The notes beneath the pieces were generated by a model. That model was not told the origin of the DNA. It searched no databases and saw only the letters and a list, made by a program, of their open reading frames with translations. 64,000 nt of DNA from Paraphysomonas bandaiensis (taxonomy: Eukaryota; Protista; Chrysophyceae): positions 186,001 to 250,000 of the forward strand of contig CBFFRP010000182.1 of the NCBI GenBank assembly GCA_965644295.1. Direction: 5' to 3'. The translations under genes were made by a program, and so were the position numbers. Positions within the stretch are counted from its first letter, which is position 1, and each line of letters opens with the position of its first letter. This document shows positions 9,155 through 64,000 of this stretch, one piece after another.

Positions 9155-9410
9155 TCAAAATGTGTTTATCAATCGACACTATTCGTTTCTGGTGTGATAC
9201 AAACAATTGTCGCTATATTAAGATTAATATGAAGATTCTAGTTCATAGTGCCACGACAACAACGTCGAGAAATCAAAAACAAAAGATAGTGTATATTAAA
9301 TACTGACAATTAGGTTATGTTCCAATTCTAAAATACGATATACTATTTCATGTTACATGTTAGACACTCTGTACTAGTAAAACGCTGGTCACAAAAAAGC
9401 ATACCATAAG

Positions 9411-12342: not shown

Positions 12343-13531
12343 TCATAGTTCTTCCACACAATCACCGTCTTCGTTTCCTTGTTTAATAGGAGTAAGAAAA
12401 CCCATTGGTTTCTGCGGTCCAATGGGGGATTTAATGTGATCGTTGCTGAGTTCAATCGAACTGGCAGTGCGGAAATTATGCCTCGTGCTGCTGCTGCCTT
12501 TCGGAGTCATTGACTCAAAGCGGAAAAATCTTTTACTGTATGGATTTGATGATTGGCGGTTGCTTTCGCAGGCCTGGGGTGTCACGCACTCAATAACGGC
12601 GCGCAGCTTTCGATGGTACTCTTTATCATCGTTTTCATCGAACCCGTCAGTGTGAACAGATGATACATGAACCCGCCGTTGGCTGACGCCAAATTTCGTG
12701 ATATGAAAAGCAAGAAAGAGAGAGCCTGTACAAATATAAAGTACATATTTACTCAGTGTGAGTTGACTAACCTGTGAGTGCACCCTGGAGAGCAGGCATA
12801 CATGTGAGGGCGATCTGAAACGAGTTACTGTTCAGTGTATCGCTTGAGGAATGGGAGTGGTAATGAATGTCATACACCATATTTAACGTCCAAGTTACCA
12901 CATATATAAGAGGGTAACCTAATAGTTGGCGTGCTAATACAAGTCGTATTCTATTCTTCGCCTCATCTATATTCGGAACAACAGACAACAGGTATATGAA
13001 ACCACAGCAGTATCCAATCAAGGCTATCCATATCCACATATAGAACGATACAATTCCCCAGAATTGAGTCAACCATTTCCCTGAATTTTCTCTGTCAGCA
13101 ATAAAGCACCAACATTCTTCTTCTCCATCATAGCATCCGAACTTATTAGTACTCAATATCAGAAATGTTAATAGCACAGGAAGAAGCCAACAAACTATAT
13201 GCGTATATAGAGATATAGGCTCTGTTCTTGTTTTGGGATCACGAAGAAAACAAATAACACTAAAAATAATCATTGTCGACCAAAAAATACTCCATAAAGG
13301 ACAAATATTAGTCAAAATAGCTTGCCACCAACAAGCCATAGACCCGTCCTCACTTACACCAATCATGAGCCCCACTGCAGTGAGCATATCAGATATAGAT
13401 ATAAAGACAAGTATTTGATTATATGAGTCTTGACGAAGAGAGGGGTTGATATTGAATATCCATAAAACGAATAGACAAACTATGCAAGATAAGCTGCCAG
13501 TGCCCAGCATCCATTGCGATACGATGTCCAT
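12343..13531 (-). CDS. 7-TM GPCR, cAMP-receptor-like/GCR1 family (intron 12726-12771)
   Basis: Seven hydrophobic segments with family-like motifs LVFISISDML, ACWWQA, SIFWS, CWLLP, ECWCFI and YPLIYVVTW; 46-bp GT-AG intron within TM7; S/R-rich tail. Confidence 0.88.
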
Positions 13532-14331
13532 AAGCACCAGAGATCCAGTTAGACAATAGATTCAGATACACTATGCTTTAGCTTGTCATTAGCTGTTAAT
13601 ATGAATATGTATGATAGATTCTGTATGTATGAAATCAGTTTTCTTTGTGGTATATATAGTTATATACTCGTTTAATGTGTAGATGTAGTTTAATGTAAGG
13701 CTCTAGCAGCACATACATATATATATATATACATAACAGCAGTCAGTATATGATGAGAAACTGCCACAATGATGACAATAAGAAAATACAGGACATAAAA
13801 TTGTTACTTTATAGGAATAAAAAATGTATATATTGTATAAGAAAACCATAACCATTCATCACAAAATGTACATATTTGATGATTGAAAGGGAAATGAGGG
13901 GTTTAGGCTAGTCTGATTCTTAAATAGTTGGGGTTTTGAGTGCTTGAAGAGGGGATTTTTTTTGTGAGTTGAATTTTTGTGAAGTGTTGTGGTCATGACA
14001 CTCTCTGATTATGCCGTATGTGTCTGTATTTGTATGTACTGTGTACCACTGGTGTATGTACGGCAGTATATGTTGCATACATACCTACATATCCATATTT
14101 CCACATACATATGTATGTATGTACTGTAGGTAGGTACGATGTAGGTGGATAGGTATATGTATACAGTAGTATATGTACGGAGGGAGCTGCTGGTTGTCTG
14201 TGAGGGAGAATTCCATCTAAATCCTCCTGCCTCGACAATCACACCAAGTTAACAATCACATCATCACACTCTCAATACATACACACATACATACATGTTC
14301 ATATCATGACCATCATACATAGACAATAAAC

Positions 14332-17724: not shown

Positions 17725-18798
17725 TTAGTAGTTAATACGAGAAGAAGGTAAGTCATACAAAGGAACACCAAAATAACTACCTAATGTGGGTGGAGGACAA
17801 TCATAAGAGTTGGAGCCCCAACCATACAGTATTGTAGAAGCATTTGCTAACAATGCAGCAAGAACGTAAACCTTACCTATTTCAAACATTTGTATTTTCT
17901 GAATGCGATGATTTCTAACGTAATTAAACTCAGTGCCAACCTTGTTGAAGCACCATTCAGAGGTTACTCTGTGAGGTGAAATTGCAATGTTCTCATAAAC
18001 CATTTCCTGAGGCAAATCTCGACCTCTGTACGCGATATTGATGTGAGTCTTTGCAACGCATCCCTTGTCAGCATATGCCTTGTACTGAACTGCATTTCCC
18101 ACTTGACAAGCGGCCAACCGTTCATTGAGTAGGCTAGTACAATATACCAGCTGATCATGACGTGGGCCTGCAAGTGGTCCATAAAAATCTACTACCATAC
18201 CATCTGGTGCACTACACCCTTGAAATTGTAAACAGTGCACACTATGGTGTCCATTGTACACCTGTGCTTGAGCACCACCAGGCCTACAAACTTCAAGTGA
18301 GGTACCATCGACAAACAATGCTGTGTCCACTGCAGCTGCACAAAGAGGATAACCATCCCTAAGCATTCTTTCTCTAATTTTTGCATTATACATTCTAAAT
18401 CGAGGTTCAAAATAGGCAATATTGTCGAATATAAGATAATGATTTCGAGCAACAACTTCTGTGACCATTGCATTGAAGATACAGTTAATTTCATCAGAGC
18501 TTCTTCCAAAATCGACTTCTATATCAGTCAAAGGAGTAAATCTAGCCATTCTATACAACATAATCAGAAACGCTTCTTCTGTATGACATCTTAAAGTATT
18601 AGAGATTACAATCATTTCATTTCTTTCAATTTTAAAACAATCCATTAATGGATAAACATGATTCTTTAAAAACTTAAATTTGAATTGGAAATCATATTCA
18701 TTCCATCTATGTATGTATGGGTGATGTGTTGCTGTGTATGATTCATATGTATAATTCCGATATTTTTGAAAGTAATAAACTGAAAAAATTAACATCAT
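17725..18798 (-). mobile_element. PIF/Harbinger-ISL2EU-type DDE transposase (DDE_Tnp_4/HARBI1-like) ORF
   Basis: FVDGT (D1), YNGHHSVHCLQFQ, PDGM..FYGP..GPRHD, YADKG (D2) and RVTSEWCF (E); intronless; no TIRs found. Confidence 0.88.
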
Positions 18799-19586
18799 AA
18801 AATGTGAATGCCTGTGATTTCCTCGCTGACGGATTGAAAGTAATAAAAATGCGATGGATAGTATTAAATATCGTTTTTCTTAATCTCTCATGTGTGTGTT
18901 GTATAGGGAGATTATTGTTTGGTGGTTGTATGGGGTTCATTGCTATGTGTATGTATGTATGTATGTATGTATGTATGAAGCTGTGTATGTAAGTATGTAT
19001 GTATATGAAGCTGTGTGTATGTATATGAAGCTGTGTGTGTGTATGTATGTATGTATGTACGAAGTGATTTTATTAAAGTCAAATGGGTCAATTTTCATAC
19101 TTCACAATACGTGAATTAGTTCAGTGAGGTTACTTATATATAGCAGCTACAGGAGAGTTGAGTGACCTGTGAAGACACTTCTATGCATGAATGCATATCT
19201 ACTGAAGATATAGTGGTGTGGAGGAGTAGATACACTATCTTCGATATACTAGAGTTTTTTGTTGGATTCGGTGTTTTGATGAACAAAATATTATACAAAT
19301 CACGAAAAAGGGTGATTTTTTTTACCTGATCGACATATTGAACCCCACAAGGTACGTATATACAGTATATGTAGTATGGAGAAAATGATGTACTGCTGCT
19401 GTACATGTATTGCATGTATGTACTGCTGTACATAGCAGTGTGTAGTGCTGTACTCTTTATAGTGGTACAGTACACTATACAGCAGTATACATGTCCTGTA
19501 ACTGTTACATATGCACAGTGCATGCAACATATATATACATCTGGAACACATCATATATTCACATATCTATCACTTACAGTACCCAC

Positions 19587-24289: not shown

Positions 24290-24924
24290 GATAGAATTGT
24301 TGTTTGGTTATGTATATATAGCAAGAGTGTTAAGATGTTAAGTTATGTGGATTGTGTTAAGATTGCTATGAAGAATGCTGTAAGATATGCATGTATATAC
24401 ATACATACGTAAACATGAATAAGAAGATAAGAAGTCAATCAATCAATTGGTCAAATGTACGTATAAATTTCTATAGAGAAGAGGGAAGAGAAGATTCACT
24501 TCATATCCTTACTTTCACTTTACTTTACTTTTCAGTTTATTACTTTGATAGTAGTGTAGCCCGTTTGTTTTGGATGGAGAGAAGATACGGAAGTAGTCGT
24601 AGGAATTCCTATAATTGGATAACAAGATGACAATTGTGATGTAGCCGGTATGTAGCCGTATATTAGTCTAGTAGCAGTCTATATATGCATCAACTGTCAA
24701 AGTAGTATGATATATGGAACATAACACGCTATGCTTCTATCCTCATATATATCCCATATACACACTTAACTAAACCAAACAAGAGTATCTACATACATTT
24801 TCATGTTAAACTTATCACCCCTACTATACTCCATCACCTCTGACAGTCTCTAAAGGGCTCATTACCTCATCCTTGACCTCCAATACACACACTAGCACAT
24901 ACATACTAATATAACAACACATAC

Positions 24925-27243
24925 ATGTTACTATCTAAAACTAACACTCAATTAGTATATATATACACTATTAGTCTTATTGTAGTCTTCATTTTTGTGT
25001 TTTATATCGAATATATTCATTATAGTAGTACCAGCTATGTGTCTGTTCAAGATACTGGACACTGCACTGAAGTATATCATACACATACTGGTCGTTATTA
25101 TGTGGGTCCTGACAAGTGGGAAAGTGAATATGGATTTAATTACCAAAATGCTCCTTATAAACTGCAGTTTTCTGACTATAGGATTGATGCATATGATTCT
25201 GACTCAAAGCAACTGGTGGATCGTTCCACACAGCTTAGAAGCACTATGAATAGCACGGATATTTCTCATAATCTGGTGTTTCTGTCTCATTATCGTGATG
25301 CTTATATCTCCGGCTTATTGCTGTCACTGACGGCATGTGCCAACGATGTATTCAACATTCCTAATAGGGAGGCTGGAGTGGTGTATTCATCGCACGAAGT
25401 TGGTGCAGATGCGGTTGGTTACTCTAAATCAGATGGGGTGATGACTTTATTTTTTCATAATACTAGTTCAATGAATATCAGTGGAAGTGCTGATATTGAT
25501 ATCGTATCACTCACACTGGCAGTGTACATAAACTCCCGTGGTTCTGAAGTACTACGTAACTTTAAAACTCTGGAGTCTAAACTTCTTCCTTTCGAATCGT
25601 TGGTTTATAATGGTGATGAGTATAGCTGTAGACTTGTTGTCAACCCAGACTACCCTCGTATGTCCCCCATATTCTGTGTGACCAATTTTGATAGTACCAA
25701 TGTGTATTGTTTTTTGTTGTCGAGGGGGCTCCCTACACTACCTATAATATCCCACTCAAGTGAGACTTGTTTGCGCTGCAGTCAGAGCCGAGAAAACTCT
25801 ACATGCTCCAAATTTGACTTCACAACATCGGTACTGCGCGTTAGGGACCATTCATATGATAATAGTGGTGTGATCAATTTTAGTAACTCTACTGAACCGT
25901 ATCATGATCTGAAGGCACATTTGGCAGGGGCTTTGCATATTGTCCATGGGGTGTATGGAGGATACTCTGATAGTGTGAGAGAAGCCGCACTACGTAGTGT
26001 TAAAAATCACAGTGACCCGGATGGCTTAGTCACGACATCTGTCAGTGAACTGGGAAATGGTGAATTGCAGTACGTAAGGCAGCATGAGTCCGGGTTTGAT
26101 CTTAGAATCGTTTCTCCTAATGGTCTCTCTGTCGATCGAGGTCACTGCAATGACTTAATTCCGTCCATTTCTGCGCTATCTACCCCATTACCCCATTCTG
26201 TAGCACCAGATCTCTACGAATGTGACCACGAGGAATACGAAACAGTTTTAGTGGGCGTGGGACATGCCATAGCAATCACGACTGGTGTCGCTATAGTTTT
26301 GGCCTTAATTTACATGTGCTGTATTACATGTATGTGCAATAACCCACAATCAACAGAAACCAACGGTGATGGAAATAGCCCTCCACTGCTCCCGTCGTCC
26401 GATGATAAATCAGCGGATGATGATAGCATTTACGGTGGATCCTCTGGGGATGAAGGTGTACTCAATTACCGTCGCGAGAAGCAACGCAAAGCTGAACTTG
26501 CCGCTTTGAAAACTGCATCCAATGATGCCAATGTTTCACACAGTAATGTTTCTTACAAACCATTATCAGGTGGGGTTCTTATTCCTAATGGAACCGGTGT
26601 GCTTAGCATGGAGGGTATTGAAATGCTTTCTGCAGAAGGGCACGATTTGACAACGCCAACTGCACAAGGCACACAACAGGAATCAAGCGCTGTTCATTCA
26701 AGCGGGCCTGTTCATATTTCGGTTGAAGATGCAGACTACACGGAAATGTCCGAAGCTGCTTCGTTGTCACCTCCTTCCGACCGCACTAACCAGGAGGACC
26801 ACCAGAGAGAGTTATTATTCAGTGCAGCTGCAGTCGGCAGCCCAGTACATATTCGTGTCGAGGGCACTTCAACCACCGACATTTCTAGAGACGAGTCGGA
26901 GACAAGTAACGTATTGCCGCTTGAGAATTCTACTATGAATGACGGGGATGTTTTTCTATCATTTTCGGACAGTGATGACCAGAATGTGTACGATTGCAAC
27001 GCATTGGAACGAAGTGAATCCTTCAAGCAATTGGATAACAGTTTTAACTCAGTGGACGGTCTGCCACATGACTGGGATAGATCGTTACTGTCATTGACAC
27101 CCAGTCAGAACCACAGAACGACTGTGCGCCGGTCACAGACAACACATGTTCAACTCAACTCAGGGCAGGGTGATAGCACGGATTCTGACGAGGACGTGTC
27201 TGTCCCAGTGCGAGTATTAGTGTCGAGAGGGTACACCCTTTGA
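24925..27243 (+). CDS. Intronless membrane protein with two TM helices, a large Cys/N-glycosylation-site-rich loop and a disordered acidic tail
   Basis: 772-aa ORF with TM at about aa 10-30 and about aa 440-470; many NxS/T sites in the loop. Confidence 0.75.
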   Translation: MLLSKTNTQLVYIYTISLIVVFIFVFYIEYIHYSSTSYVSVQDTGHCTEVYHTHTGRYYVGPDKWESEYGFNYQNAPYKLQFSDYRIDAYDSDSKQLVDRSTQLRSTMNSTDISHNLVFLSHYRDAYISGLLLSLTACANDVFNIPNREAGVVYSSHEVGADAVGYSKSDGVMTLFFHNTSSMNISGSADIDIVSLTLAVYINSRGSEVLRNFKTLESKLLPFESLVYNGDEYSCRLVVNPDYPRMSPIFCVTNFDSTNVYCFLLSRGLPTLPIISHSSETCLRCSQSRENSTCSKFDFTTSVLRVRDHSYDNSGVINFSNSTEPYHDLKAHLAGALHIVHGVYGGYSDSVREAALRSVKNHSDPDGLVTTSVSELGNGELQYVRQHESGFDLRIVSPNGLSVDRGHCNDLIPSISALSTPLPHSVAPDLYECDHEEYETVLVGVGHAIAITTGVAIVLALIYMCCITCMCNNPQSTETNGDGNSPPLLPSSDDKSADDDSIYGGSSGDEGVLNYRREKQRKAELAALKTASNDANVSHSNVSYKPLSGGVLIPNGTGVLSMEGIEMLSAEGHDLTTPTAQGTQQESSAVHSSGPVHISVEDADYTEMSEAASLSPPSDRTNQEDHQRELLFSAAAVGSPVHIRVEGTSTTDISRDESETSNVLPLENSTMNDGDVFLSFSDSDDQNVYDCNALERSESFKQLDNSFNSVDGLPHDWDRSLLSLTPSQNHRTTVRRSQTTHVQLNSGQGDSTDSDEDVSVPVRVLVSRGYTL

Positions 27244-29602: not shown

Positions 29603-30108
29603 CATACATACATACATACATACATACATACATACATACATACATACATACATACATACATACATACATACATACATACATACATACAAACATACATACA
29701 TACATACATACATACATACATACATACATACATACATACATACATACATACATACATACATACATACATACATACATACATACATACATACATACATACA
29801 TACATACATACATACATACATACATACATACATACATACATACATACATACATACATACATACATACATACATACATACATACATACATACATACATACA
29901 TACATACATACATACATACATACATACATACATACATACATACATACATACATACATACATACATACATACATACATACATACATACATACATACATACA
30001 TACATACATACATACATACATACATACATACATACATACATACATACATACATACATACATACATACATACATACATACATACATACATACATACATACA
30101 TACATACA
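29603..30108. repeat. (CATA)n microsatellite, about 126 units
   Basis: Pure tetranucleotide array with a single CAAA variant near 29688. Confidence 0.99.
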
Positions 30109-32942: not shown

Positions 32943-33334
32943 AGGGAAATATTTTTTAGTCCAGGGCTTGGTAACCGTTAATGGTAATTGTGGCATTAAT
33001 GGTCATTAACGCCCATTATAATTGCCGGGACATTTTTCATTAACGACATTATAATTGCCGGGAACTGGACTACCATTAATGGGTCATTAATGGTTACCAG
33101 GCCCTGATTCAGGGTAGTCAAATTTATGTAATTTCTTAATCACACTATTTTTTGTGTAAACATACCTAGCCAAAGTAATAAATGATTCAACCTAGTCCAT
33201 TTTAGTTATAAACCTAGTCAAAAATTATTGCATGTGACTAGGTTTATAACTAAAATGGACTAGGTTTTTACACCTCTAATTTGGTGTGACTAGGACATTA
33301 CACCAAATTGACTATAGGTTGAATAATACATCCC
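32943..33334. mobile_element. Fold-back MITE with GACTAGG subrepeats (family also at 45814-45883 and 55043-55165), interrupted by a nested hAT-type MITE
   Basis: Left end agggaaatatt...cctagtc repeats and right end gactaggtt...gaataatacatccc; the left arm matches the reverse complement of 55043-55165. Confidence 0.7.
32962..33106. mobile_element. hAT-type MITE (145 bp)
   Basis: TIRs cagggcttggtaacc / ggttaccaggccctg (1 mismatch); internal cattaatg and ataattgccggga subrepeats. Confidence 0.8.
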
Positions 33335-37208: not shown

Positions 37209-37726
37209 AATTATGTTGTTTAATGGATTACTTCATTGTTTGAATGTCAATGTTGGGTTTGATCATATATATATATATGTATGTGTAGGTGATACAATGA
37301 TGGCATCAACTCCATACATATATACAGCAGTATATATGTACACATATATAGTACTGCTCCTATAGATACACTATACACAAGTAGATTTTGATTTTTATTG
37401 GTTTACAAAATCCTATTTTTAGCACTAATAGTTACAGAATTTTGGAAGATTTGGTCTATTCATATTATTTCAAGAGATTTTTAAGAATAAAGTAGTCTAT
37501 CTGCTGTAGATATCCGGATATCCAGCTACCCCTCTGCTGTATCCGTAGTATGTTAAGGAAGATCACCCAAAAAGTGGACAGTCCCACTAGTACTTCGTAG
37601 TATGGTATATGCACATATCTCTGCAGCAATCAGCACTCTGCACTCTGCAGTATACTGACACAGACACAAGCTAGTTCTTGAACTACCATACGCTTCATTC
37701 ACAGATTGACGATAACTTTACGAGCA

Positions 37727-40700
37727 ATGGCTGATATCAACGAGGCCGCTGACATCACAGAAGATGATCCTGACTTTGGGTGGGACTTAAATGCCGAATA
37801 TGAGTTTGACTCTGACTCTGATCTTGAGTTTGACTCTGATCTTGCTTATGACTGGCTCTTTCGTATCAGTGGTGATAACTCCATGAGTGCTTCTTCTAAT
37901 GAGATGCATGAAGGGGCTGTCAATGGGCATCTCTCACTCTACAGAGGTGATAACTCCATGAGTGCTTCTTCTAATGAGATGCATGAAGGGGCTGTCAATG
38001 GGCATCTCTCACTCTACAGAGGTGATAACTCCATGAGTGCTTCTTCTAATGAGATGCATGAAGGGGCTGTCAATGGGCATCTCTCACTCTACAGAGGTGA
38101 TAACTCCATGAGTGCTTCTTCTAATGAGATGCATGAAGGGGCTGTCAATGGGCATCTCTCACTCTACAGAGGTGATAACTCCATGAGTGCTTCTTCTAAT
38201 GAGATGCATGAAGGGGCTGTCAATGGGCATCTCTCACTCTACAGAGGTGATAACTCCATGAGTGCTTCTTCTAATGAGATGCATGAAGGGGCTGTCAATG
38301 GGCATCTCTCACTCTACAGAGGTGATAACTCCATGAGTGATTTTCAGGATGATGTAGATCAGGATACACTAAATCGAGTAGACGAAGCAAATGATAGTGA
38401 TACTCCCGTTGCTGTAAATCAGGACGCAATAAATGGGGAACGAGGAGATTACGGTAACTCTCATGTAAGAAACAGTAAGAACGAAATATATCGTATCGAA
38501 GATCGGGATATCGATATCATGTGGACTCATTTCAAATTTCTCCGCACTGAGATCAAAACAAAGAAATGGAGTGAATATGATCTTTTCAGACGTGATAAGG
38601 AAAGTCGAATAATTCTGACGGCTACATGTAAGAAATATTTTATTCCTGAGATTATCATGAAGAAATACGTAACACAAAAAGAAATTCGTATACATGATGG
38701 GAACCAGATAACTTTGGATAAAATTATGGGAAGAGTGACGGATCTTGTTAATGCATGTTGTCGTCCATCCGCCGAATCAAGACTAAACACCGAATCAAGA
38801 GTAACGGCCAATGATGACCGCTTCGATGTAAATGAAATGTTGCCGTCAAAGAAAGGTATTATGATATTGATGGCTATTTGGAGCAAGACGCTTCTGAGGA
38901 TACGAGATGACATTCTTCGTATTCGAAACTCTAGTATTGAGCCCTATGATGGCATGACAATGGATGACATTATCCGGGACATGAAACTTGGTCATGTGCT
39001 ACCTCGTGGACATTATTTGAGGAGTAGGGTTTCTAAACGAGCTAAACGAAAAATAATGGAGCGTGATGATATCGATGCGGATGCGTGTAAGCGTTCCCAT
39101 CTTCGCAGACGAGTTGGTTCTTTCGAACACGAGCATTTCGTGTTTAAGCCTCATGAGGTAGAAGTGGTTGAAGCCGAACTTAAAGGTAGAATGGAGGCTC
39201 ACGGGATACCCACGACTTCAACCAATTCGGAAGGCGGAGGAAACGGCCACTCTCTGGACATGCAAAGCAACAAGCCTAAATTTTCTGACATCTATACTCC
39301 AGCATGCAGAAAACAGGTTACAACTAATGGGGGAGGCCAAGATAACGGTCACTCTCATATAAGAAACAGTAAGAACGAAATATATCGTATCGATGATTGG
39401 GATATATATGTCATGTGGACTCATTTCAAATTTCTCCGCACTGAGATCAAAACAAAGAAATGGAGTGAATATGATCTTTTCAGACGTGATAAGGAAAGTC
39501 GAATAATTCTGACGGCTACATGTAAGAAATATTTTATTCCTGAGATTATCATGAAGAAATACGTAACACAAAAAGAAATTCGTATACATGATGGGAACCA
39601 GATAACTTTGGATAAAATTATGGGAAGAGTGACGGATCTTGTTAATGCATGTTGTCGTCCATCCGCCGAATCAAGACTAAACACCGAATCAAGAGTAACG
39701 GCCAATGATGACCGCTTCGATGTAAATGAAATGTTGCCGTCAAAGAAAGGTATTATGATATTGATGGCTATTTGGAGCAAGACGCTTCTGAGGATACGAG
39801 ATGACATTCTTCGTATTCGAAACTCTAGTATTGAGCCCTATGATGGCATGACAATGGATGACATTATCCGGGACATGAAACTTGGTCATGTGCTACCTCG
39901 TGGACATTATTTGAGGAGTAGGGTTTCTAAACGAGCTAAACGAAAAATAATGGAGCGTGATGATATCGATGCGGATGCGTGTAAGCGTTCCCATCTTCGC
40001 AGACGAGTTGGTTCTTTCGAACACGAGCATTTCGTGTTTAAGCCTCATGAGGTAGAAGTGGTTGAAGCCGAACTTAAAGGTAGAATGGAGGCTCACGGGA
40101 TACCCACGACTTCAACCAATTCGGAAGGCGGAGGAAACGGCCACTCTCTGGACATGCAAAGCAACAAGCCTAAATTTTCTGACATCTATACTCCAGCATG
40201 CAGAAAACAGGTTACAACTAATGGGGGAGGCCAAGATAACGGTCACTCTCATATAAGAAACAGTAAGAACGAAATATATCGTATCGATGATTGGGATATA
40301 TATGTCATGTGGACTCATTTCAAATTTCTCCGCACTGAGATCAAAACAAAGAAATGGAGTGAATATGATCTTTTCAGACGTGATAAGGAAAGTCGAATAA
40401 TTCTGACGGCTACATGTAAGAAATATTTTATTCCTGAGATTATCATGAAGAAATACGTAACACAAAAAGAAATTCGTATACATGATGGGAACCAGATAAC
40501 TTTGGATAAAATTATGGGAAGAGTGACGGATCTTGTTAATGCATGTTGTCGTCCATCCGCCGAATCAAGACTAAACACCGAATCAAGAGTAACGGCCAAT
40601 GATGACCGCTTCGATGTAAATGAAATGTTGCCGTCAAAGAAAGGTATTATGATATTGATGGCTATTTGGAGCAAGACGCTTCTGAGGATACGAGATGACA

Positions 40701-43700
40701 TTCTTCGTATTCGAAACTCTAGTATTGAGCCCTATGATGGCATGACAATGGATGACATTATCCGGGACATGAAACTTGGTCATGTGCTACCTCGTGGACA
40801 TTATTTGAGGAGTAGGGTTTCTAAACGAGCTAAACGAAAAATAATGGAGCGTGATGATATCGATGCGGATGCGTGTAAGCGTTCCCATCTTCGCAGACGA
40901 GTTGGTTCTTTCGAACACGAGCATTTCGTGTTTAAGCCTCATGAGGTAGAAGTGGTTGAAGCCGAACTTAAAGGTAGAATGGAGGCTCACGGGATACCCA
41001 CGACTTCAACCAATTCGGAAGGCGGAGGAAACGGCCACTCTCTGGACATGCAAAGCAACAAGCCTAAATTTTCTGACATCTATACTCCAGCATGCAGAAA
41101 ACAGGTTACAACTAATGGGGGAGGCCAAGATAACGGTCACTCTCATATAAGAAACAGTAAGAACGAAATATATCGTATCGATGATTGGGATATATATGTC
41201 ATGTGGACTCATTTCAAATTTCTCCGCACTGAGATCAAAACAAAGAAATGGAGTGAATATGATCTTTTCAGACGTGATAAGGAAAGTCGAATAATTCTGA
41301 CGGCTACATGTAAGAAATATTTTATTCCTGAGATTATCATGAAGAAATACGTAACACAAAAAGAAATTCGTATACATGATGGGAACCAGATAACTTTGGA
41401 TAAAATTATGGGAAGAGTGACGGATCTTGTTAATGCATGTTGTCGTCCATCCGCCGAATCAAGACTAAACACCGAATCAAGAGTAACGGCCAATGATGAC
41501 CGCTTCGATGTAAATGAAATGTTGCCGTCAAAGAAAGGTATTATGATATTGATGGCTATTTGGAGCAAGACGCTTCTGAGGATACGAGATGACATTCTTC
41601 GTATTCGAAACTCTAGTATTGAGCCCTATGATGGCATGACAATGGATGACATTATCCGGGACATGAAACTTGGTCATGTGCTACCTCGTGGACATTATTT
41701 GAGGAGTAGGGTTTCTAAACGAGCTAAACGAAAAATAATGGAGCGTGATGATATCGATGCGGATGCGTGTAAGCGTTCCCATCTTCGCAGACGAGTTGGT
41801 TCTTTCGAACACGAGCATTTCGTGTTTAAGCCTCATGAGGTAGAAGTGGTTGAAGCCGAACTTAAAGGTAGAATGGAGGCTCACGGGATACCCACGACTT
41901 CAACCAATTCGGAAGGCGGAGGAAACGGCCACTCTCTGGACATGCAAAGCAACAAGCCTAAATTTTCTGACATCTATACTCCAGCATGCAGAAAACAGGT
42001 TACAACTAATGGGGGAGGCCAAGATAACGGTCACTCTCATATAAGAAACAGTAAGAACGAAATATATCGTATCGATGATTGGGATATATATGTCATGTGG
42101 ACTCATTTCAAATTTCTCCGCACTGAGATCAAAACAAAGAAATGGAGTGAATATGATCTTTTCAGACGTGATAAGGAAAGTCGAATAATTCTGACGGCTA
42201 CATGTAAGAAATATTTTATTCCTGAGATTATCATGAAGAAATACGTAACACAAAAAGAAATTCGTATACATGATGGGAACCAGATAACTTTGGATAAAAT
42301 TATGGGAAGAGTGACGGATCTTGTTAATGCATGTTGTCGTCCATCCGCCGAATCAAGACTAAACACCGAATCAAGAGTAACGGCCAATGATGACCGCTTC
42401 GATGTAAATGAAATGTTGCCGTCAAAGAAAGGTATTATGATATTGATGGCTATTTGGAGCAAGACGCTTCTGAGGATACGAGATGACATTCTTCGTATTC
42501 GAAACTCTAGTATTGAGCCCTATGATGGCATGACAATGGATGACATTATCCGGGACATGAAACTTGGTCATGTGCTACCTCGTGGACATTATTTGAGGAG
42601 TAGGGTTTCTAAACGAGCTAAACGAAAAATAATGGAGCGTGATGATATCGATGCGGATGCGTGTAAGCGTTCCCATCTTCGCAGACGAGTTGGTTCTTTC
42701 GAACACGAGCATTTCGTGTTTAAGCCTCATGAGGTAGAAGTGGTTGAAGCCGAACTTAAAGGTAGAATGGAGGCTCACGGGATACCCACGACTTCAACCA
42801 ATTCGGAAGGCGGAGGAAACGGCCACTCTCTGGACATGCAAAGCAACAAGCCTAAATTTTCTGACATCTATACTCCAGCATGCAGAAAACAGGTTACAAC
42901 TAATGGGGGAGGCCAAGATAACGGTCACTCTCATATAAGAAACAGTAAGAACGAAATATATCGTATCGATGATTGGGATATATATGTCATGTGGACTCAT
43001 TTCAAATTTCTCCGCACTGAGATCAAAACAAAGAAATGGAGTGAATATGATCTTTTCAGACGTGATAAGGAAAGTCGAATAATTCTGACGGCTACATGTA
43101 AGAAATATTTTATTCCTGAGATTATCATGAAGAAATACGTAACACAAAAAGAAATTCGTATACATGATGGGAACCAGATAACTTTGGATAAAATTATGGG
43201 AAGAGTGACGGATCTTGTTAATGCATGTTGTCGTCCATCCGCCGAATCAAGACTAAACACCGAATCAAGAGTAACGGCCAATGATGACCGCTTCGATGTA
43301 AATGAAATGTTGCCGTCAAAGAAAGGTATTATGATATTGATGGCTATTTGGAGCAAGACGCTTCTGAGGATACGAGATGACATTCTTCGTATTCGAAACT
43401 CTAGTATTGAGCCCTATGATGGCATGACAATGGATGACATTATCCGGGACATGAAACTTGGTCATGTGCTACCTCGTGGACATTATTTGAGGAGTAGGGT
43501 TTCTAAACGAGCTAAACGAAAAATAATGGAGCGTGATGATATCGATGCGGATGCGTGTAAGCGTTCCCATCTTCGCAGACGAGTTGGTTCTTTCGAACAC
43601 GAGCATTTCGTGTTTAAGCCTCATGAGGTAGAAGTGGTTGAAGCCGAACTTAAAGGTAGAATGGAGGCTCACGGGATACCCACGACTTCAACCAATTCGG

Positions 43701-45487
43701 AAGGCGGAGGAAACGGCCACTCTCTGGACATGCAAAGCAACAAGCCTAAATTTTCTGACATCTATACTCCAGCATGCAGAAAACAGGTTACAACTAATGG
43801 GGGAGGCCAAGATAACGGTCACTCTCATATAAGAAACAGTAAGAACGAAATATATCGTATCGATGATTGGGATATATATGTCATGTGGACTCATTTCAAA
43901 TTTCTCCGCACTGAGATCAAAACACAGAAATGGAGTGAATATGATCTTTTCAGACGTGATAAGGAAAGTCGAATAATTCTGACGGCTACATGTAAGAAAT
44001 ATTTTATTCCTGAGATTATCATGAAGAAATACGTAACACAAAAAGAAATTCGTATACATGATGGGAACCAGATAACTTTGGATAAAATTATGGGAAGAGT
44101 GACGGATCTTGTTAATGCATGTTGTCGTCCATCCGCCGAATCAAGACTAAACACCGAATCAAGAGTAACGGCCAATGATGACCGCTTCGATGTAAATGAA
44201 ATGTTGCCGTCAAAGAAAGGTATTATGATATTGATGGCTATTTGGAGCAAGACGCTTCTGAGGATACGAGATGACATTCTTCGTATTCGAAACTCTAGTA
44301 TTGAGCCCTATGATGGCATGACAATGGATGACATTATCCGGGACATGAAACTTGGTCATGTGCTACCTCGTGGACATTATTTGAGGAGTAGGGTTTCTAA
44401 ACGAGCTAAACGAAAAATAATGGAGCGTGATGATATCGATGCGGATGCGTGTAAGCGTTCCCATCTTCGCAGACGAGTTGGTTCTTTCGAACACGAGCAT
44501 TTCGTGTTTAAGCCTCATGAGGTAGAAGTGGTTGAAGCCGAACTTAAAGGTAGAATGGAGGCTCACGGGATACCCACGACTTCAACCAATTCGGAAGGCG
44601 GAGGAAACGGCCACTCTCTGGACATGCAAAGCAACAAGCCTAAATTTTCTGACATCTATACTCCAGCATGCAGAAAACAGGTTACAACTAATGGGGGAGG
44701 CCAAGATAACGGTCACTCTCATATAAGAAACAGTAAGAACGAAATATATCGTATCGATGATTGGGATATATATGTCATGTGGACTCATTTCAAATTTCTC
44801 CGCACTGAGATCAAAACACAGAATTGGAGTGAATATGATCTTTTCAGACGTGATAAGGAAAGTCGAATAATTCTGACGGCTACATGTAAGAAATATTTTA
44901 TTCCTGAGATTATCATGAAGAAATACGTAACACAAAAAGAAATTCGTATACATGATGGGAACCAGATAACTTTGGATAAAATTATGGGAAGAGTGACGGA
45001 TCTTGTTAATGCATGTTGTCGTCCATCCGCCGAATCAAGACTAAACACCGAATCAAGAGTAACGGCCAATGATGACCGCTTCGATGTAAATGAAATGTTG
45101 CCGTCAAAGAAAGGTATTATGATATTGATGGCTATTTGGAGCAAGACGCTTCTGAGGATACGAGATGACATTCTTCGTATTCGAAACTCTAGTATTGAGC
45201 CCTATGATGGCATGACAATGGATGACATTATCCGGGACATGAAACTTGGTCATGTGCTACCTCGTGGACATTATTTGAGGAGTAGGGTTTCTAAACGAGC
45301 TAAACGAAAAATAATGGAGCGTGATGATATCGATGCGGATGCGTGTAAGCGTTCCCATCTTCGCAGACGAGTTGGTTCTTTCGAACACGAGCATTTCGTG
45401 TTTAAGCCTCATGAGGTAGAAGTGGTTGAAGCCGAACTTAAAGGTAGAATGGAGGCTCACGGGATACCCACGACTTCTCCAGGATAG
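37727..45487 (+). CDS. Giant intronless tandem-repeat protein of unknown family (~2,586 aa: acidic N-terminus, 6x25-aa repeats, 8x298-aa units)
   Basis: Uninterrupted ORF; the domain is conserved with a paralog at 62073-63929, which supports real coding function. Confidence 0.8.
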   Translation: MADINEAADITEDDPDFGWDLNAEYEFDSDSDLEFDSDLAYDWLFRISGDNSMSASSNEMHEGAVNGHLSLYRGDNSMSASSNEMHEGAVNGHLSLYRGDNSMSASSNEMHEGAVNGHLSLYRGDNSMSASSNEMHEGAVNGHLSLYRGDNSMSASSNEMHEGAVNGHLSLYRGDNSMSASSNEMHEGAVNGHLSLYRGDNSMSDFQDDVDQDTLNRVDEANDSDTPVAVNQDAINGERGDYGNSHVRNSKNEIYRIEDRDIDIMWTHFKFLRTEIKTKKWSEYDLFRRDKESRIILTATCKKYFIPEIIMKKYVTQKEIRIHDGNQITLDKIMGRVTDLVNACCRPSAESRLNTESRVTANDDRFDVNEMLPSKKGIMILMAIWSKTLLRIRDDILRIRNSSIEPYDGMTMDDIIRDMKLGHVLPRGHYLRSRVSKRAKRKIMERDDIDADACKRSHLRRRVGSFEHEHFVFKPHEVEVVEAELKGRMEAHGIPTTSTNSEGGGNGHSLDMQSNKPKFSDIYTPACRKQVTTNGGGQDNGHSHIRNSKNEIYRIDDWDIYVMWTHFKFLRTEIKTKKWSEYDLFRRDKESRIILTATCKKYFIPEIIMKKYVTQKEIRIHDGNQITLDKIMGRVTDLVNACCRPSAESRLNTESRVTANDDRFDVNEMLPSKKGIMILMAIWSKTLLRIRDDILRIRNSSIEPYDGMTMDDIIRDMKLGHVLPRGHYLRSRVSKRAKRKIMERDDIDADACKRSHLRRRVGSFEHEHFVFKPHEVEVVEAELKGRMEAHGIPTTSTNSEGGGNGHSLDMQSNKPKFSDIYTPACRKQVTTNGGGQDNGHSHIRNSKNEIYRIDDWDIYVMWTHFKFLRTEIKTKKWSEYDLFRRDKESRIILTATCKKYFIPEIIMKKYVTQKEIRIHDGNQITLDKIMGRVTDLVNACCRPSAESRLNTESRVTANDDRFDVNEMLPSKKGIMILMAIWSKTLLRIRDDILRIRNSSIEPYDGMTMDDIIRDMKLGHVLPRGHYLRSRVSKRAKRKIMERDDIDADACKRSHLRRRVGSFEHEHFVFKPHEVEVVEAELKGRMEAHGIPTTSTNSEGGGNGHSLDMQSNKPKFSDIYTPACRKQVTTNGGGQDNGHSHIRNSKNEIYRIDDWDIYVMWTHFKFLRTEIKTKKWSEYDLFRRDKESRIILTATCKKYFIPEIIMKKYVTQKEIRIHDGNQITLDKIMGRVTDLVNACCRPSAESRLNTESRVTANDDRFDVNEMLPSKKGIMILMAIWSKTLLRIRDDILRIRNSSIEPYDGMTMDDIIRDMKLGHVLPRGHYLRSRVSKRAKRKIMERDDIDADACKRSHLRRRVGSFEHEHFVFKPHEVEVVEAELKGRMEAHGIPTTSTNSEGGGNGHSLDMQSNKPKFSDIYTPACRKQVTTNGGGQDNGHSHIRNSKNEIYRIDDWDIYVMWTHFKFLRTEIKTKKWSEYDLFRRDKESRIILTATCKKYFIPEIIMKKYVTQKEIRIHDGNQITLDKIMGRVTDLVNACCRPSAESRLNTESRVTANDDRFDVNEMLPSKKGIMILMAIWSKTLLRIRDDILRIRNSSIEPYDGMTMDDIIRDMKLGHVLPRGHYLRSRVSKRAKRKIMERDDIDADACKRSHLRRRVGSFEHEHFVFKPHEVEVVEAELKGRMEAHGIPTTSTNSEGGGNGHSLDMQSNKPKFSDIYTPACRKQVTTNGGGQDNGHSHIRNSKNEIYRIDDWDIYVMWTHFKFLRTEIKTKKWSEYDLFRRDKESRIILTATCKKYFIPEIIMKKYVTQKEIRIHDGNQITLDKIMGRVTDLVNACCRPSAESRLNTESRVTANDDRFDVNEMLPSKKGIMILMAIWSKTLLRIRDDILRIRNSSIEPYDGMTMDDIIRDMKLGHVLPRGHYLRSRVSKRAKRKIMERDDIDADACKRSHLRRRVGSFEHEHFVFKPHEVEVVEAELKGRMEAHGIPTTSTNSEGGGNGHSLDMQSNKPKFSDIYTPACRKQVTTNGGGQDNGHSHIRNSKNEIYRIDDWDIYVMWTHFKFLRTEIKTQKWSEYDLFRRDKESRIILTATCKKYFIPEIIMKKYVTQKEIRIHDGNQITLDKIMGRVTDLVNACCRPSAESRLNTESRVTANDDRFDVNEMLPSKKGIMILMAIWSKTLLRIRDDILRIRNSSIEPYDGMTMDDIIRDMKLGHVLPRGHYLRSRVSKRAKRKIMERDDIDADACKRSHLRRRVGSFEHEHFVFKPHEVEVVEAELKGRMEAHGIPTTSTNSEGGGNGHSLDMQSNKPKFSDIYTPACRKQVTTNGGGQDNGHSHIRNSKNEIYRIDDWDIYVMWTHFKFLRTEIKTQNWSEYDLFRRDKESRIILTATCKKYFIPEIIMKKYVTQKEIRIHDGNQITLDKIMGRVTDLVNACCRPSAESRLNTESRVTANDDRFDVNEMLPSKKGIMILMAIWSKTLLRIRDDILRIRNSSIEPYDGMTMDDIIRDMKLGHVLPRGHYLRSRVSKRAKRKIMERDDIDADACKRSHLRRRVGSFEHEHFVFKPHEVEVVEAELKGRMEAHGIPTTSPG
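37871..38339 (+). repeat. In-frame 75-bp minisatellite, 6 perfect copies plus 19 bp
   Basis: Unit ggtgataactccatgagt...ctctacaga encodes GDNSMSASSNEMHEGAVNGHLSLYR. Confidence 0.97.
38450..45477 (+). repeat. In-frame 894-bp tandem array, 8 units (last lacks the linker)
   Basis: Shadow ORFs recur at 38527, 39421 ... 44785; the only variants noticed are at the start of unit 1 and at 43925, 44819 and 44824. Confidence 0.97.
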
Positions 45488-45813
45488 CCATTAGGCATGA
45501 AATGGTGCTTACACCAATGTTGGAATACATCATGCAGTGTGTAACTACCATTTCGCGTTGTGGCAAACTATATACTTTGTAGTCTAAGAAAAACAAAATA
45601 TATGCTATATTGCTTGAAACTGAGATATCATAAGTATTTAAAGTACTTTAAATGAAATATGGTTAAGGAATAGGGAAGTATACAAAATATAAATAAATAT
45701 GTGTATTTCTGAACTAGATTTTTTCTTCTGTTCATTTCATTTCTCTAAACTTTGTACCTCGTGAGCATACATGAATTTATAGTCTGGTGAAGTAGTTGTC
45801 CTCCTTGTTGAAA

Positions 45814-45883
45814 TTGACTAGGTTGAATTATTTATTACTTAGACTAGGTATTTACACCAAGAATAGTGTGACTAGGAAATTTC
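45814..45883. mobile_element. Fragment of the GACTAGG fold-back element
   Basis: ttgactaggttgaattatttattacttagactagg...gtgtgactagg matches 55065-55130. Confidence 0.65.
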
Positions 45884-45989: not shown

Positions 45990-46108
45990 CAGGGCTGCGT
46001 AACAATTATTTGTATTGCAATAATTGTAATTATAATTGCGCCAGCATATCTAACAATTTCAATTTATTTGCTAAAAAGCATTTTCAATTTAATTGTTACG
46101 CAGCCCTG
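45990..46108. mobile_element. hAT-type MITE (119 bp)
   Basis: Perfect 19-bp TIR cagggctgcgtaacaatta; 8-bp TSD ataaacat/atacacat (7 of 8 match). Confidence 0.9.
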
Positions 46109-52638: not shown

Positions 52639-53421
52639 CAGGGATAGGGAACAATATATTGTATTGCAATACATTGTAAAATATATTGATTGGTGGACTG
52701 GTCAAATATTCCATCAATAGTGTTTCTGTTAAAAGAGCTCACAATACTATTGCAATATATTGCAATCAATATTATGATAGTCGTATAAGAGAAGATTCTC
52801 AACTGTAGGGTGCAAAATTGATATAAATAACCGAGAAATTGATTACAACATTACAAAGGATAATGAAGCTGATGTTGACTATATGCGACTAAAAACCTTC
52901 AGTCAGCTCAAAAAATTAAGAAACGTACAGATCCACGAGTCATTAACGGTTGCCTGGCCCTGGTATGTACTTCCAATACATGGGAACGTCTGTTCAGCAC
53001 AGCTAAACATATTATATCAGTGTTGCGCAAAAGTATCCATCCTACTTAATATATATGCTGTTGTTTCTGAAAGCTATTCGACAGTTATGGCCGGATACTA
53101 GCATATTTCAATTAATTCTGTGGATGAATATGGTGATGTTGATGTCACCGATGATGGCTCAGAGGATGAGGACGAGGTGGATTTTTAGTAGCTATAAGCA
53201 GCAGTTGGTTTGGTTGTCATGTGATCTTAATGACTAATACTAAAAATGAAATCTACGGATGTGTTTACCTACTGATTAGCCATACTAATATATTGCAATA
53301 CATTGACAATATATTGCAATATATTGTAATTGTATTGTAGGACCGGTTTAAAAAATCCATCAATACTATTGATGGAACGCTATCTAACAATATTATTGCA
53401 ATATATTGTTCCCTATCCCTG
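52639..53421 (+). mobile_element. Internally deleted hAT transposon (783 bp) with a C-terminal dimerisation-domain remnant
   Basis: Perfect 23-bp TIR cagggatagggaacaatatattg, perfect 8-bp TSD atatttcc and tattgcaata subterminal repeats; internal CTSNTWERLFSTAKHII..RKSIHP*/MLLFLKAIRQLW. Confidence 0.93.
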
Positions 53422-55042: not shown

Positions 55043-55165
55043 CGACTAGGTTGAATACCAAAGTTGACTAGGTTGAGTCATTTATTACTTTGACTAGGTT
55101 ATTCCACCAAGAATAGCGTGACTAGGTAATTCAACCAATTTGACTAGGTTGAATAATATTTCCCT
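55043..55165. mobile_element. Arm of the GACTAGG fold-back element
   Basis: Five gactagg units ending in gaataatatttccct. Confidence 0.7.
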
Positions 55166-57299: not shown

Positions 57300-57790
57300 T
57301 GATACGTACACTGATGATGGCTGATGGGATGATACGTACTGCTGGGGATGATACGTACTGCTGGGGATGATACGTACTGCTGGGGTGTGTACTGCTGGGG
57401 ATGATATGTACCGCTGGGGATGATATGTACCGCTGGGGATGATATGTACCGCTGGGGATGATACGTACTGCTGGGGTGTGTACTGCTGGGGATGATACGT
57501 ACTGCTGGGGATGATATGTACCGCTGGGGATGATATGTACCGCTGGGGATGATATGTACCGCTGGGGATGATACGTACTGCTGGGGTGTGTACTGCTGGG
57601 GATGATACGTACTGCTGTGTGTCATATGTGCTGCTACTGCTGGGGTGCTGGGGACTGCTGGGGATGATGTGTACTGCTGGGGATGATACATACTGCTGGG
57701 GTGTGTACTGCTGGGCATGATATGTACTGCTGGGGATGATGTGTACTACAGTACTGGGGATGATATGTACATCAGTATGTACTGCTGTGA
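57300..57790. repeat. G-rich minisatellite of 20-bp and 15-bp variant units
   Basis: Units ggggatgatacgtactgct, ggggatgatatgtaccgct and ggggtgtgtactgct, arranged in repeated blocks. Confidence 0.95.
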
Positions 57791-60287: not shown

Positions 60288-60818
60288 CTAGATAGATTAT
60301 GCTATTATAATTGTATACACAATTGTGTTGTCAAGTAAAAACTCATCAACAACATGACAATATAATTTGTTCATGCCATCCACTGATCAATTTCCATATC
60401 TTGTACAGTCGTGGTACAATACTTCAGTTTCACAGTTATAGCTATATAGATAGTATGTTTGACTACGTATTACAATTTCTCACATTGTATTTATCGTATT
60501 CTATAGAACTATCTTAGAGAGACATACATATTCCAACGCTAATGTGCGTATTCCAACACATTCAACTTCTATATTCTGTTCGAATTTCGAATAGAAACAA
60601 TCCACCACATTGATATTGTGATTTTATTATGGATATTATACAATCGCAATGATGAGTCAATATTCAAAACGATTCCGTCATCCGTCTGAAATAGAAAATT
60701 CTAATGATGACAGTGCTAGTAATCGATCTTCGCAAAAATGTACAAATAAAGGGCGAAAGTTAAAAAGTGGAGGAAGAGGAGTATTGTTCATCCTTTTCGT
60801 TACTAACCCCTTCTTCAT

Positions 60819-60840
60819 CTAACCCTAACCCTAACCCTAA
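60819..60840. repeat. Interstitial telomere-like (CCCTAA)3+ tract
   Basis: ctaaccctaaccctaaccctaa. Confidence 0.8.
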
Positions 60841-62072
60841 TCTTCATATTACTCATCGCTCTTGGCTGTGTTATCCTAAACATTTATTGTTTTATCACCA
60901 TCAGTATAGAGTACTAACTACAAAAAGTGTGTATAAGTTCGAAGAGTATAGGAGCGGGAGGTGGGTAAACTGTGCACGGCAGTTTCATGCGATATATCCA
61001 GTAACAAGGCTGTGCCCTGAACAAGGTCGGACTCCTACATTTTCGTGGTGTTCTGGGAATAAGAAACGGAACGATTTCTTTGGGAAGCAAACATTAGCCG
61101 CTGCTTGCTTCATATATTGGGCTGTAACCGGGGTGTTTTGGGCTGCCTGCTGAAAGTCGAGCGTCCGGGATGTTCACCTTGAGGACTCGAAAATCCTGAC
61201 GTCAGCAGATGTTAGCAGGTATATCAACATTCTGCATGTTCACTACGTTTGCTTTTTGTGTGATAGAGCGTGAGTGGTTGCAACTTGGTGTTGGCGGTGA
61301 CACACAAGCAGCTTTCGTAATGATAAATAGTAGGATATTAGAGTAAAGCTCTAGTTGGTTAAATTATAATGCTAAATTAGTTCCGACTCTTACACGCCTA
61401 TTGCTAATAATAAGATATTTACTACTAGCCAGTCTGTTCTCTAGCGAGCGGTTGACTACTATTTTCATCGCTATACTAGATGTACTTGCAAGCATAACAG
61501 TTGTACGATGATACAGATTATCCATGATAAATAGTAATATTATTTTAATTAAGAAGCTTCGGTTGTGTATTGGTTACACGGTTACTGTAATATATTGTCA
61601 GCTAGTTATAACAGAAACGACTATCGACCAATCATTATAGCATTCTACAATACATTATTCCCCAGTAATGGTTTATTAGGTGGTAGTCCTTTCAAATATT
61701 CAGTGGTTCTTGCATTGAATATCTTAGGAATTAGTTTGGTAGAAAGCTTAACAATATTCTGCTCATATATATTTTAAGGGGGATAACGACTTTCTCAATC
61801 TATAAACTAATGTATGTTTTGCCAATAACAAGACATTCACTAATGTAGTTCACGAGGTACTAAGTTTAGAGGAATCAAATGATGGACAGAAGAAAAATAC
61901 TAATTCCAGTTCAGAATACATATATATACTTTGTATACTTCCCTATTCCTTAAACATATCATATTTAAAGTACTTTGAATACTTATGATACTTCAGTTTC
62001 AAGCAATATAGCATATAGTTTGCTTTTCTTCCAACATTGGTGTAAGCACAATTTCATGCCTATTTATAATGG

Positions 62073-63929
62073 CTATCCCGGAGAAGTTGTGGGCATCCCG
62101 TGAGCCCGCATTCTATCTTCAAGCTCGGCTTTAACCACTTCCACCTCATGAGGTTTGAACACAATATGCTCGTGATCAAAAGAACCCACTCGTCTGCGAA
62201 GATGGGAATGCTCATACTCATCTGCATCGATACCATCACGCTCCATTACTTTTCGTTTAGCTCGTTTAGGAACCCTACCCCTCAAAAAATGTCCACGACG
62301 TAGCACATTGTCAAGTTCCATGTCCCGGATAATGTCATCCATTGTCTTACCATTATAGTACTCTATCTTAGAGTTTCGATCATGAAGAATGTCATCTCGT
62401 ATCCTCAGAAGCGCCTTGCTCCAAATAGCCATCAATATCATAATATCATTACTTGATGGCAAGATTTCATCTACATCAAAGCGGTCATCATTGGCCTTTA
62501 CTCTTGATTCGGTGGATGGACGACAACATGCATTAACAAGGTCCGTCACTCTTCTCATAATTTTTTTTAAAGTTTTCTCGTTGCTATCAGATTTACGAAT
62601 TACATGATCATGTGCTACGTATTTCTTCATGATTCTTTCAGGAATAAAATAGTTCTTACATATACGCGATAGAATTATTCGATTATCCTTCTTATTATGT
62701 TTGAAGAGCTTAAGCGCAGTCCATTTCTCTGTTGTGATTTCAGCGCGGAGAGATTGGAAATGCGTCGACATGGCATCGATGTCCTCATCATCGATACGTT
62801 GTATTTTGTCCTTACTTTTTCTTTTAAGAGAGTGACCGTTTTCTCCTCGTTCCCCGTTTGCTGTATTCTGATTTCTGTAGCCGGGTTTATAGATGTCAGA
62901 ATATTTAGGCTTGCTGTCGTTGATGTTACAAGGTTGACCGTTTACTCCGCCTTCCGATTTTTCTGAAGCCTGTATGTCGTGAGCCCGCATTCTATTTTCA
63001 AGCTCGGCTTTAACCACTTCCACCTCATGAGGCTTAAACAGAATATGCTCGTGATCGAAAGAACCCACTCGTCTGCGAAGATGGGAACGCTTATACTCAT
63101 CCGCATCGATACCATCAAGCTCCATTATTTTTCGTTTAGCTCGTTTAGGAACCCTACCCCTCAAATAATGTCCACGAGGTAGCACATGGTCAAGTTCCAT
63201 GTCCCGGATAATGTCATCCATTGTCTTACCATCATAGTGCTCAATACTAGAGTTTCGATCATGAAGAATGTCATCTCGCATCTTCAGAAGCGCCTTGCTC
63301 CAAATAGCCATCAATATCATAATACCATTATTTGATGGCAAGATTTCATCTACATCGAAGCGGTCATCATTGGCCTTTACTCTTGATTCGGCGAATGGAC
63401 GACAACATGCATTAATAAGGTCCGTTACTCTTTTCTTAATTTTTTTTAAAGTTTTCTCGTTGCTATCACACATACGAATATCATGTTGTGTTGGTGTTTC
63501 TATTCGTGTTAAGTATTTCTTCATGATAACCTTAGGAATAAAATTTTTCTTGCATTTAGCCTTCAGAATTATTCGATTTTTCCCATCATGTCTGAAGAGA
63601 TGATCTTTTTTCCATTGCGTTGTTGTGATATCAGTGCGGAGCTTGTTAAAATGAGTGCACACGAGATCGATGTCCTCATCCTCGATATGACACACTGTAC
63701 AGAAGAAAGATTCGGTATTGACGTCCCACCTATAGTCAGGAACATCTTGTATGCTATTGTTATACCCTTTACAGACGCTAGTGGGAAAATCATGCATCTC
63801 ATTCGAAGAAGCACTCATGGAGCCATCACCGTTAATACTAGAGCGATAGTCATAAGCAAGATCAGAGTCAAAGTCAAACTCAGAGTCAAAGTCAAACTCA
63901 GATGCGGCATTAAAGTTCCTATCAGCCAT
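62073..63929 (-). CDS. Paralog of the giant repeat protein, with two diverged units (~618 aa)
   Basis: Same N-terminus (MAD...EFDSDLAYD...SMSASSNEMH), two domain copies (RVTDLxNACCRP, MILMAIWSK, SHLRRRVGSF.HEH..FKPHEVEVV) and the same PTTSPG end. Confidence 0.85.
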   Translation of the reverse strand: MADRNFNAASEFDFDSEFDFDSDLAYDYRSSINGDGSMSASSNEMHDFPTSVCKGYNNSIQDVPDYRWDVNTESFFCTVCHIEDEDIDLVCTHFNKLRTDITTTQWKKDHLFRHDGKNRIILKAKCKKNFIPKVIMKKYLTRIETPTQHDIRMCDSNEKTLKKIKKRVTDLINACCRPFAESRVKANDDRFDVDEILPSNNGIMILMAIWSKALLKMRDDILHDRNSSIEHYDGKTMDDIIRDMELDHVLPRGHYLRGRVPKRAKRKIMELDGIDADEYKRSHLRRRVGSFDHEHILFKPHEVEVVKAELENRMRAHDIQASEKSEGGVNGQPCNINDSKPKYSDIYKPGYRNQNTANGERGENGHSLKRKSKDKIQRIDDEDIDAMSTHFQSLRAEITTEKWTALKLFKHNKKDNRIILSRICKNYFIPERIMKKYVAHDHVIRKSDSNEKTLKKIMRRVTDLVNACCRPSTESRVKANDDRFDVDEILPSSNDIMILMAIWSKALLRIRDDILHDRNSKIEYYNGKTMDDIIRDMELDNVLRRGHFLRGRVPKRAKRKVMERDGIDADEYEHSHLRRRVGSFDHEHIVFKPHEVEVVKAELEDRMRAHGMPTTSPG

Positions 63930-64000
63930 TGCTCGTAAAGTTATCGTCAATCTGTGAATGAAGCGTATGGTAGTTCAAGAACTAGCTTGTGTCTGTGTTA

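Follow-up and report, generated by a model that had tools for sequence, protein, structure and literature searches.

An intact eight-unit tandem array of a lineage-restricted protein domain in a Paraphysomonas gene

The window analyzed here, a 64,000-nucleotide stretch of the Paraphysomonas bandaiensis contig CBFFRP010000182.1, holds two related genes, called A and B (Table 1). ORF A is open without interruption over 2586 codons and encodes a product with a calculated mass of 300 kDa. It contains eight copies of a 240-residue domain, repeated with a period of 894 bp (298 residues). Frame, period and an anchor motif found eight times at 298-residue spacing confirmed the 7.8-kb frame with eight near-identical units that had been described in a sequence-only reading of this DNA. 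The array is made of seven complete periods followed by an eighth domain without a linker. With unit 3 as the reference, units 2, 4, 5 and 6 show no differences, making units 2–6 identical; unit 1 differs at five nucleotides, unit 7 at one, and unit 8 at two in addition to its terminal PG-stop. Each of the remaining five frames of one unit carries 6–35 stops. The domain has a pI of 9.4 and is followed by a linker of 58 residues. The leader of ORF A has a pI of 4.2, and its first 45 residues include 17 D/E and 12 F/W/Y/L but no K or R.

Table 1. Features of genes A and B (positions are those of the window)
Feature	Position	Strand	Basis
5' flank common with gene B (70/71 nt); likely promoter/5' UTR	37658..37726	+	alignment
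ORF A, 2586 aa	37727..45487	+	open frame
Acidic/aromatic N-terminal tail	37727..37866	+	residue composition
In-frame 75-bp (25-aa) minisatellite, 6.3 copies; one copy in gene B	37867..38339	+	repeat scan
Pre-unit stretch, homologous to inter-unit linker, 83% over 106 aligned nt	38400..38494	+	alignment
Domain copy A1; first codons retain B-like residues	38495..39214	+	unit alignment
Domain copies A2–A6, starts 39389, 40283, 41177, 42071, 42965; identical 894-bp units, 58-aa linkers	39389..43684	+	
Domain copy A7, one change K to Q	43859..44578	+	
Domain copy A8, two changes, then TSPG-stop like gene B	44753..45472	+	
3' flank common with gene B, 10.5% substitutions, indels of any length	45488..45772	+	alignment
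Gene B 3' flank, homologous to that of A	61843..62072	-	alignment
ORF B: acidic leader, B1 (63686-62967), 57-aa linker, B2 (62795-62088)	62073..63929	-	
Gene B 5' flank, ended by window edge	63930..64000	-	alignment

The two-unit inverted paralogue noted in the same reading was also found. ORF B encodes 618 residues with two domains, and it is convergent with A at a distance of 16,586 bp from the stop codon of A. B1 and B2 are 76% identical to each other, and the B units are 71% identical to the A units; the linkers of A and B share only 51%. The two genes also have their flanks in common: the sequence upstream of the ATG is nearly identical as far as the window edge, and approximately 285 nt of 3' flank can be aligned. 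The divergence between A and B is higher in the coding region (15%) than in the 3' flank (10.5%) or the 5' flank (1.4%). Within A, the units are 97.5–100% identical, which, set against 71% between A and B, fits a concertedly evolving intragenic array; B1 and B2 do not fit this pattern. The end units of A retain older states. Unit 1 has a D that is also present in B and in the relative P0002, where units 2–8 have a Y, and the Q of units 7 and 8 is the state of P0002 and of a variant in runs X15 and X16.

Around A and B lie eukaryotic genes of ordinary kinds (importin, PIG-U, annexin, a PH/WW protein, GH16 and a formyltransferase). Two long open frames, 24910-27243 (+; 777 codons) and 450-1379 (−; 309 codons), have no Pfam match, and an ORF at 17725-18879 (−) encodes a Harbinger-type DDE nuclease (PF13359, E 9e-14). 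At 8648-13048, a 1,466-bp unit with an out-of-frame period is present three times with one difference, and this unit corresponds to the 3' portion of a cAMP-receptor-like GPCR gene (12767-13561, −). A small element at 45990-46108, which we take to be a hAT-type MITE, carries terminal inverted repeats without mismatch, which start with CAGGGCTG; the 8-bp duplication that flanks it is near-perfect, and its depth in the DNA runs is high. At 52639-53421, a 783-bp element is bounded by 23-bp terminal inverted repeats that match perfectly and start with CAGGGATA, and its 8-bp target-site duplication is also perfect; the element is part of a cluster (52.3–55.2 kb) with a depth hundreds of times that of single-copy sequence. 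Other repeats are a perfect 288-bp duplication (4113-4688), 126 copies of CATA (29603-30108), a 19-bp minisatellite with 24 copies (57326-57770) and three to four telomere-like CCCTAA units (60818-60840) located 1.2 kb downstream of gene B. A palindromic repeat, short and rich in GACTAGG, occurs three times (33107-33266, 45811-45881 and 55044-55154), once just beyond the 3' flank common to A and B.

The number of units was assessed by read depth in the DNA runs X1, X5 and X7, which come from three studies and have flanks matching the window; X5 may be the window's own source. In X5, the unit has collapsed to a circular contig (its joint leads back 894) that has a depth of 284.4, and the adjoining identical single-copy contig of 7,019 bp has a depth of 36.2, giving a ratio of 7.9, although contig depth is a rough measure and not in general a copy number. 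Ratios based on bins were 8.9 for X1 (bootstrap 6.5–13.8), 7.4 for X5 and 7.9 for X7 (5.7–11.9). A depth of about eight copies (7.4–8.9) in three DNA runs argues against an assembly artefact with only one or two real units, a concern that the sequence-only reading had raised. We saw no sign of variation in unit number, as all three runs with window-matching flanks gave approximately eight. Given this constancy and the out-of-frame 1,466-bp array in the same window, the earlier idea that dosage is tuned by unit count found no support.

Members of the family are transcribed. Two poly(A) runs from one marine sample contain contigs that span a unit, the linker and the next unit and that differ from A by 2–3% (X15, record 13; X18, record 9), so that transcription, on which the earlier reading had made its proposal depend, is seen across the unit junction of a close variant of A. 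X18 also contains an importin contig with no differences whose length falls short of the genomic sequence, as expected after splicing. A 241-nt piece identical to A is present in a third RNA run. RNA contigs give neither strand nor level, and the evidence consists of pieces that are shorter than an eight-unit mRNA.

A search of 1.84 billion proteins with a profile returned 20 matches at E≤0.001, one of which is a repeat artefact and two of which are fragments. The 19 relatives are mostly single-domain proteins, in most cases with the domain placed after a short or low-complexity N-terminus, and the distant ones align across the whole domain at 14–27% identity. The family thus has differing unit numbers, as had been proposed: eight in A, two in B and mostly one elsewhere. 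P0011 has one and a half domains, which is a separate partial tandem duplication. P0002, which is closest to A and B, belongs to the MMETSP1103 transcriptome (taxon 36769, genus Paraphysomonas). It clusters with A within the A/B clade (96/93), a placement that would make a Paraphysomonas-like chrysophyte the probable host. That transcriptome is also the source of P0005 and P0021, and P0006 is from an MMETSP set; the other relatives are metagenome records, unnamed or 'hypothetical', and the known taxa are limited to the sources of these four. P0027 lies on a 1.02-Mb contig. L001, the lone candidate from viral contigs, was rejected; it spans a stop codon.

The best-kept region of the domain comprises residues 149–235. 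R38, Y151, G153, T155 and G172 are held in all 21 rows of the alignment, and R176, I187, H202 and E221 in 20; a basic residue is found at position 204 in 19 rows and at 218 in 18. The A/B clade has lost several residues common in the family (H157, G180, Y217 and S67-Q68). The His and Cys residues previously listed as conserved are mostly recent, and H202 alone is held family-wide. No entry in Pfam, PHROGs, NCBIfam, PADLOC or the PDB matches the domain, in keeping with the earlier failure to recognize it. None of the 21 family members reaches a Pfam-A gathering cut-off (the best, CheR_N, has E 0.0006 over 17 residues and is below it), and the best PADLOC hit had E 0.007 in one of 21 members, giving no match to a defence family. 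We found no description of the domain in the literature. The unit has no C-x2-4-C...H-x3-H pattern and no Pfam match, and it is not a C2H2 zinc-finger repeat. Its V..LVNACCR stretch may resemble the BEN domain. RacA, MerR, Xis and AlpA are grouped as MerR-type winged-helix DNA-binding domains; hhalign gave 0.34% for a low-power MerR-type template of five sequences, and Pfam again gave no match. These results support a real, folded, expressed and lineage-restricted domain family that is absent from the libraries searched.

The sequence-only reading had taken the conserved blocks as the mark of a selected folded domain. The blocks are present in all unit versions of A and B. However, dN/dS between paralogous units of A and B is 0.85–1.34 (NG86) at a dS of 0.13–0.19, and the maximum-likelihood value is 1.15 with no region differing from 1. 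The conservation of the blocks is therefore mainly due to recent ancestry, and the average lies near 1, the value that the reading itself had named as contrary to its view. The argument is not supported in that form, and selection needed other kinds of evidence. Among approximately 171 substitutions, no stop arose (P about 0.004), and the net coding indels are all multiples of three, which those of the 3' flank are not. Invariant columns make up 64 of 84 at hydrophobic positions versus 79 of 150, beyond what was seen in 1,500 neutral simulations (p<0.001). The conserved N-terminal sites agree with P0003, a relative of 47% identity (p=0.0007); the hydrophobicity retained in P0003 is not beyond neutral expectation. 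Thus, the protein is still constrained despite the mean dN/dS of about 1, and it is on these tests that the selected domain is upheld. A site model with 9–15% fast sites beats a nearly neutral one (M2a vs M1a, p=0.005) for three sequences, part of the improvement being regained by a neutral model with rate variation. The fast sites that pass in both data sets fall within the N-terminal residues 8–67. The variants listed among close copies, a subset chosen by the tool, comprise 16 non-synonymous changes and one synonymous change.

The history of the locus is well supported: from an old single-domain family came a two-unit gene, this gene was duplicated along with its flanks, and one of the duplicates, A, then underwent amplification and homogenization. 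In this history, the two-unit gene would have been duplicated together with its promoter and 3' end, the duplicate taking an inverted position. One unit-plus-linker of copy A would then have been amplified by unequal crossing-over and homogenized, leaving older residues in the end units only. A is an intact gene, likely expanded from a two-copy, B-like ancestor, and we consider the chances about even that its product is the predicted nuclear, multivalent DNA-binding regulator. For the domain itself, nucleic-acid binding is the best guess that we can infer. The C-terminal subdomain (approximately residues 149–235; helix, helix, short helix, β-hairpin, helix) would contact DNA, and it carries the family-wide residues Y151, G153, T155, G172, R176, H202, K/R204, K/R218 and E221. 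The acidic-aromatic tail would serve as an activation or partner-binding tail, the fast-changing N-terminal residues would shift specificity, and the eight units would increase avidity for repeated sites. A bolder version, which we regard as improbable, takes the unit as a previously undescribed DNA-binding domain that belongs to chrysophyte-like flagellates and contains a MerR-like winged-helix subdomain. The A/B clade would then be a protist equivalent of arrays driven by conflict, with positively selected specificity residues and valency gained through whole 298-residue units, and it would recognize repeated viral or transposon DNA.

The strongest rival has the same history as this regulator; the sole point of difference is whether unit number matters. 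The domain is real in this account, the A/B clade is relaxed and eight copies arose by chance, with one or two units sufficing for any function; we hold it possible, if doubtful. The mean dN/dS of about 1 in every region fits, as does the loss of family-wide residues in the A/B clade. In the available portion of PMC5120217, accelerated evolution or strongly relaxed selection is commonly seen in paralogous repeats. The window has other near-perfect arrays (1,466 bp ×3, 288 bp ×2 and 75 bp ×6.3), and as the first of these is out of frame, expansions of this kind need no selection. On the other hand, stops and frameshifts have been kept out and hydrophobic sites conserved, and the unit-to-unit junction is present in the 2–3% divergent variant as well, so multi-unit genes persist. 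The remaining readings are weaker, and we name them in descending order. That A encodes an intracellular factor against giant viruses, virophages or transposons, with a diversifying recognition surface and units that expand under pressure, we judge unlikely. It would account for the fast N-terminal sites, the excess of amino-acid changes among close copies and a coding divergence above that of both flanks; repeats between A and B reach hundreds of times the single-copy depth, and the accessible text of 10.1101/2025.06.17.660233 reports that giant viruses infect chrysophytes. Yet there is no match to a defence family in PADLOC, the copy number is the same in three DNA runs, and the selection signal comes from three sequences.

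We give still less weight to a mobile or virus-derived element, including a non-autonomous one with a frame kept open merely for translation. The gene is intronless and multicopy, the common 5' region being joined near 37382 by another genomic copy, and its dN/dS is about 1. Such an origin, suggested in the sequence-only reading, found no backing: five viral-contig scans, phages, plasmids and prokaryote genomes gave no relative (distant ones are missed by pattern-based scans), the flanks of A and B, scanned separately and with the 5' end of B ended by the window edge, have no terminal repeats, and no target-site duplication, ribozyme or mobility enzyme was found for either gene. The GC content by codon position is within the range of the neighboring genes, and site-specific constraint and deep homologues speak against a sham frame. 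Very unlikely in our estimate is the earlier suggestion of a polyprotein cut into identical 34-kDa modules, like polyubiquitin or Olduvai pro-proteins. The units are identical, and single-domain relatives indicate that one unit can stand alone, but there is no 2A-like motif, protease domain of its own or conserved cleavage site in the linkers, which diverge widely between A and B; a furin-type match occurs once per unit, but the protein has no signal peptide, and cleavage by a host protease is possible. Inflation of one or two real units to eight during assembly would suit the identical units 2–6 and is largely refuted by the depth ratios in three runs of three studies and by private variants in units 1, 7 and 8.

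What is new is an old, expressed domain family in little-studied marine bacterivores, for which a first profile and testable conserved residues are now available; its unit number is seen to rise from one to two and then to eight, with support from read depth. Should it bind DNA, the domain would be a new eukaryotic DNA-binding class, and A, B and the single-unit relatives would form a natural series of valencies. Should the count be neutral, the locus is a clean protist example of array homogenization, and the interest is in the domain alone.

Comparison with the MerR-type winged helix (RacA, MerR, Xis, AlpA) gave a chance-level Z and no sequence support, and the subdomain of A is embedded in a 240-residue domain with a long helical hairpin. 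NBPF/Olduvai (DUF1220), as described in the available part of PMC13028154, is also a lineage-expanded family whose function is poorly known and whose members combine an N-terminal region with variable numbers of tandem domains. However, there is no sequence match, and Olduvai units include furin-cleaved subdomains, whereas the unit of A is one mostly helical domain in an uninterrupted frame and has no secretion signal. The zinc-finger array of PRDM9, a coding minisatellite, varies in its number of units and shows non-synonymous changes at few sites (PMC3890296, in part). A is likewise a tandem coding array; it is without C2H2 fingers, SET or KRAB, and its DNA binding is a prediction. As the units of A are 298 residues long and identical within the gene, the array would add valency and not a composite code as in PRDM9. 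The aciniform spidroin AcSp1 has large repeats that are >98% identical by intragenic homogenization and several loci per genome (accessible text of PMC3933166), but it is a secreted structural fiber under purifying selection, whereas A is intracellular with a dN/dS of about 1. The Podospora hnwd non-self recognition genes show paralogous repeat arrays, concerted evolution and repeat gain and loss (PMC2873952, from the portion available); A is without a STAND NTPase, WD40 or an effector domain beside the repeat. The pattern of the array is thus already known from NBPF/Olduvai, PRDM9, AcSp1 and hnwd, and A belongs to none of the four.
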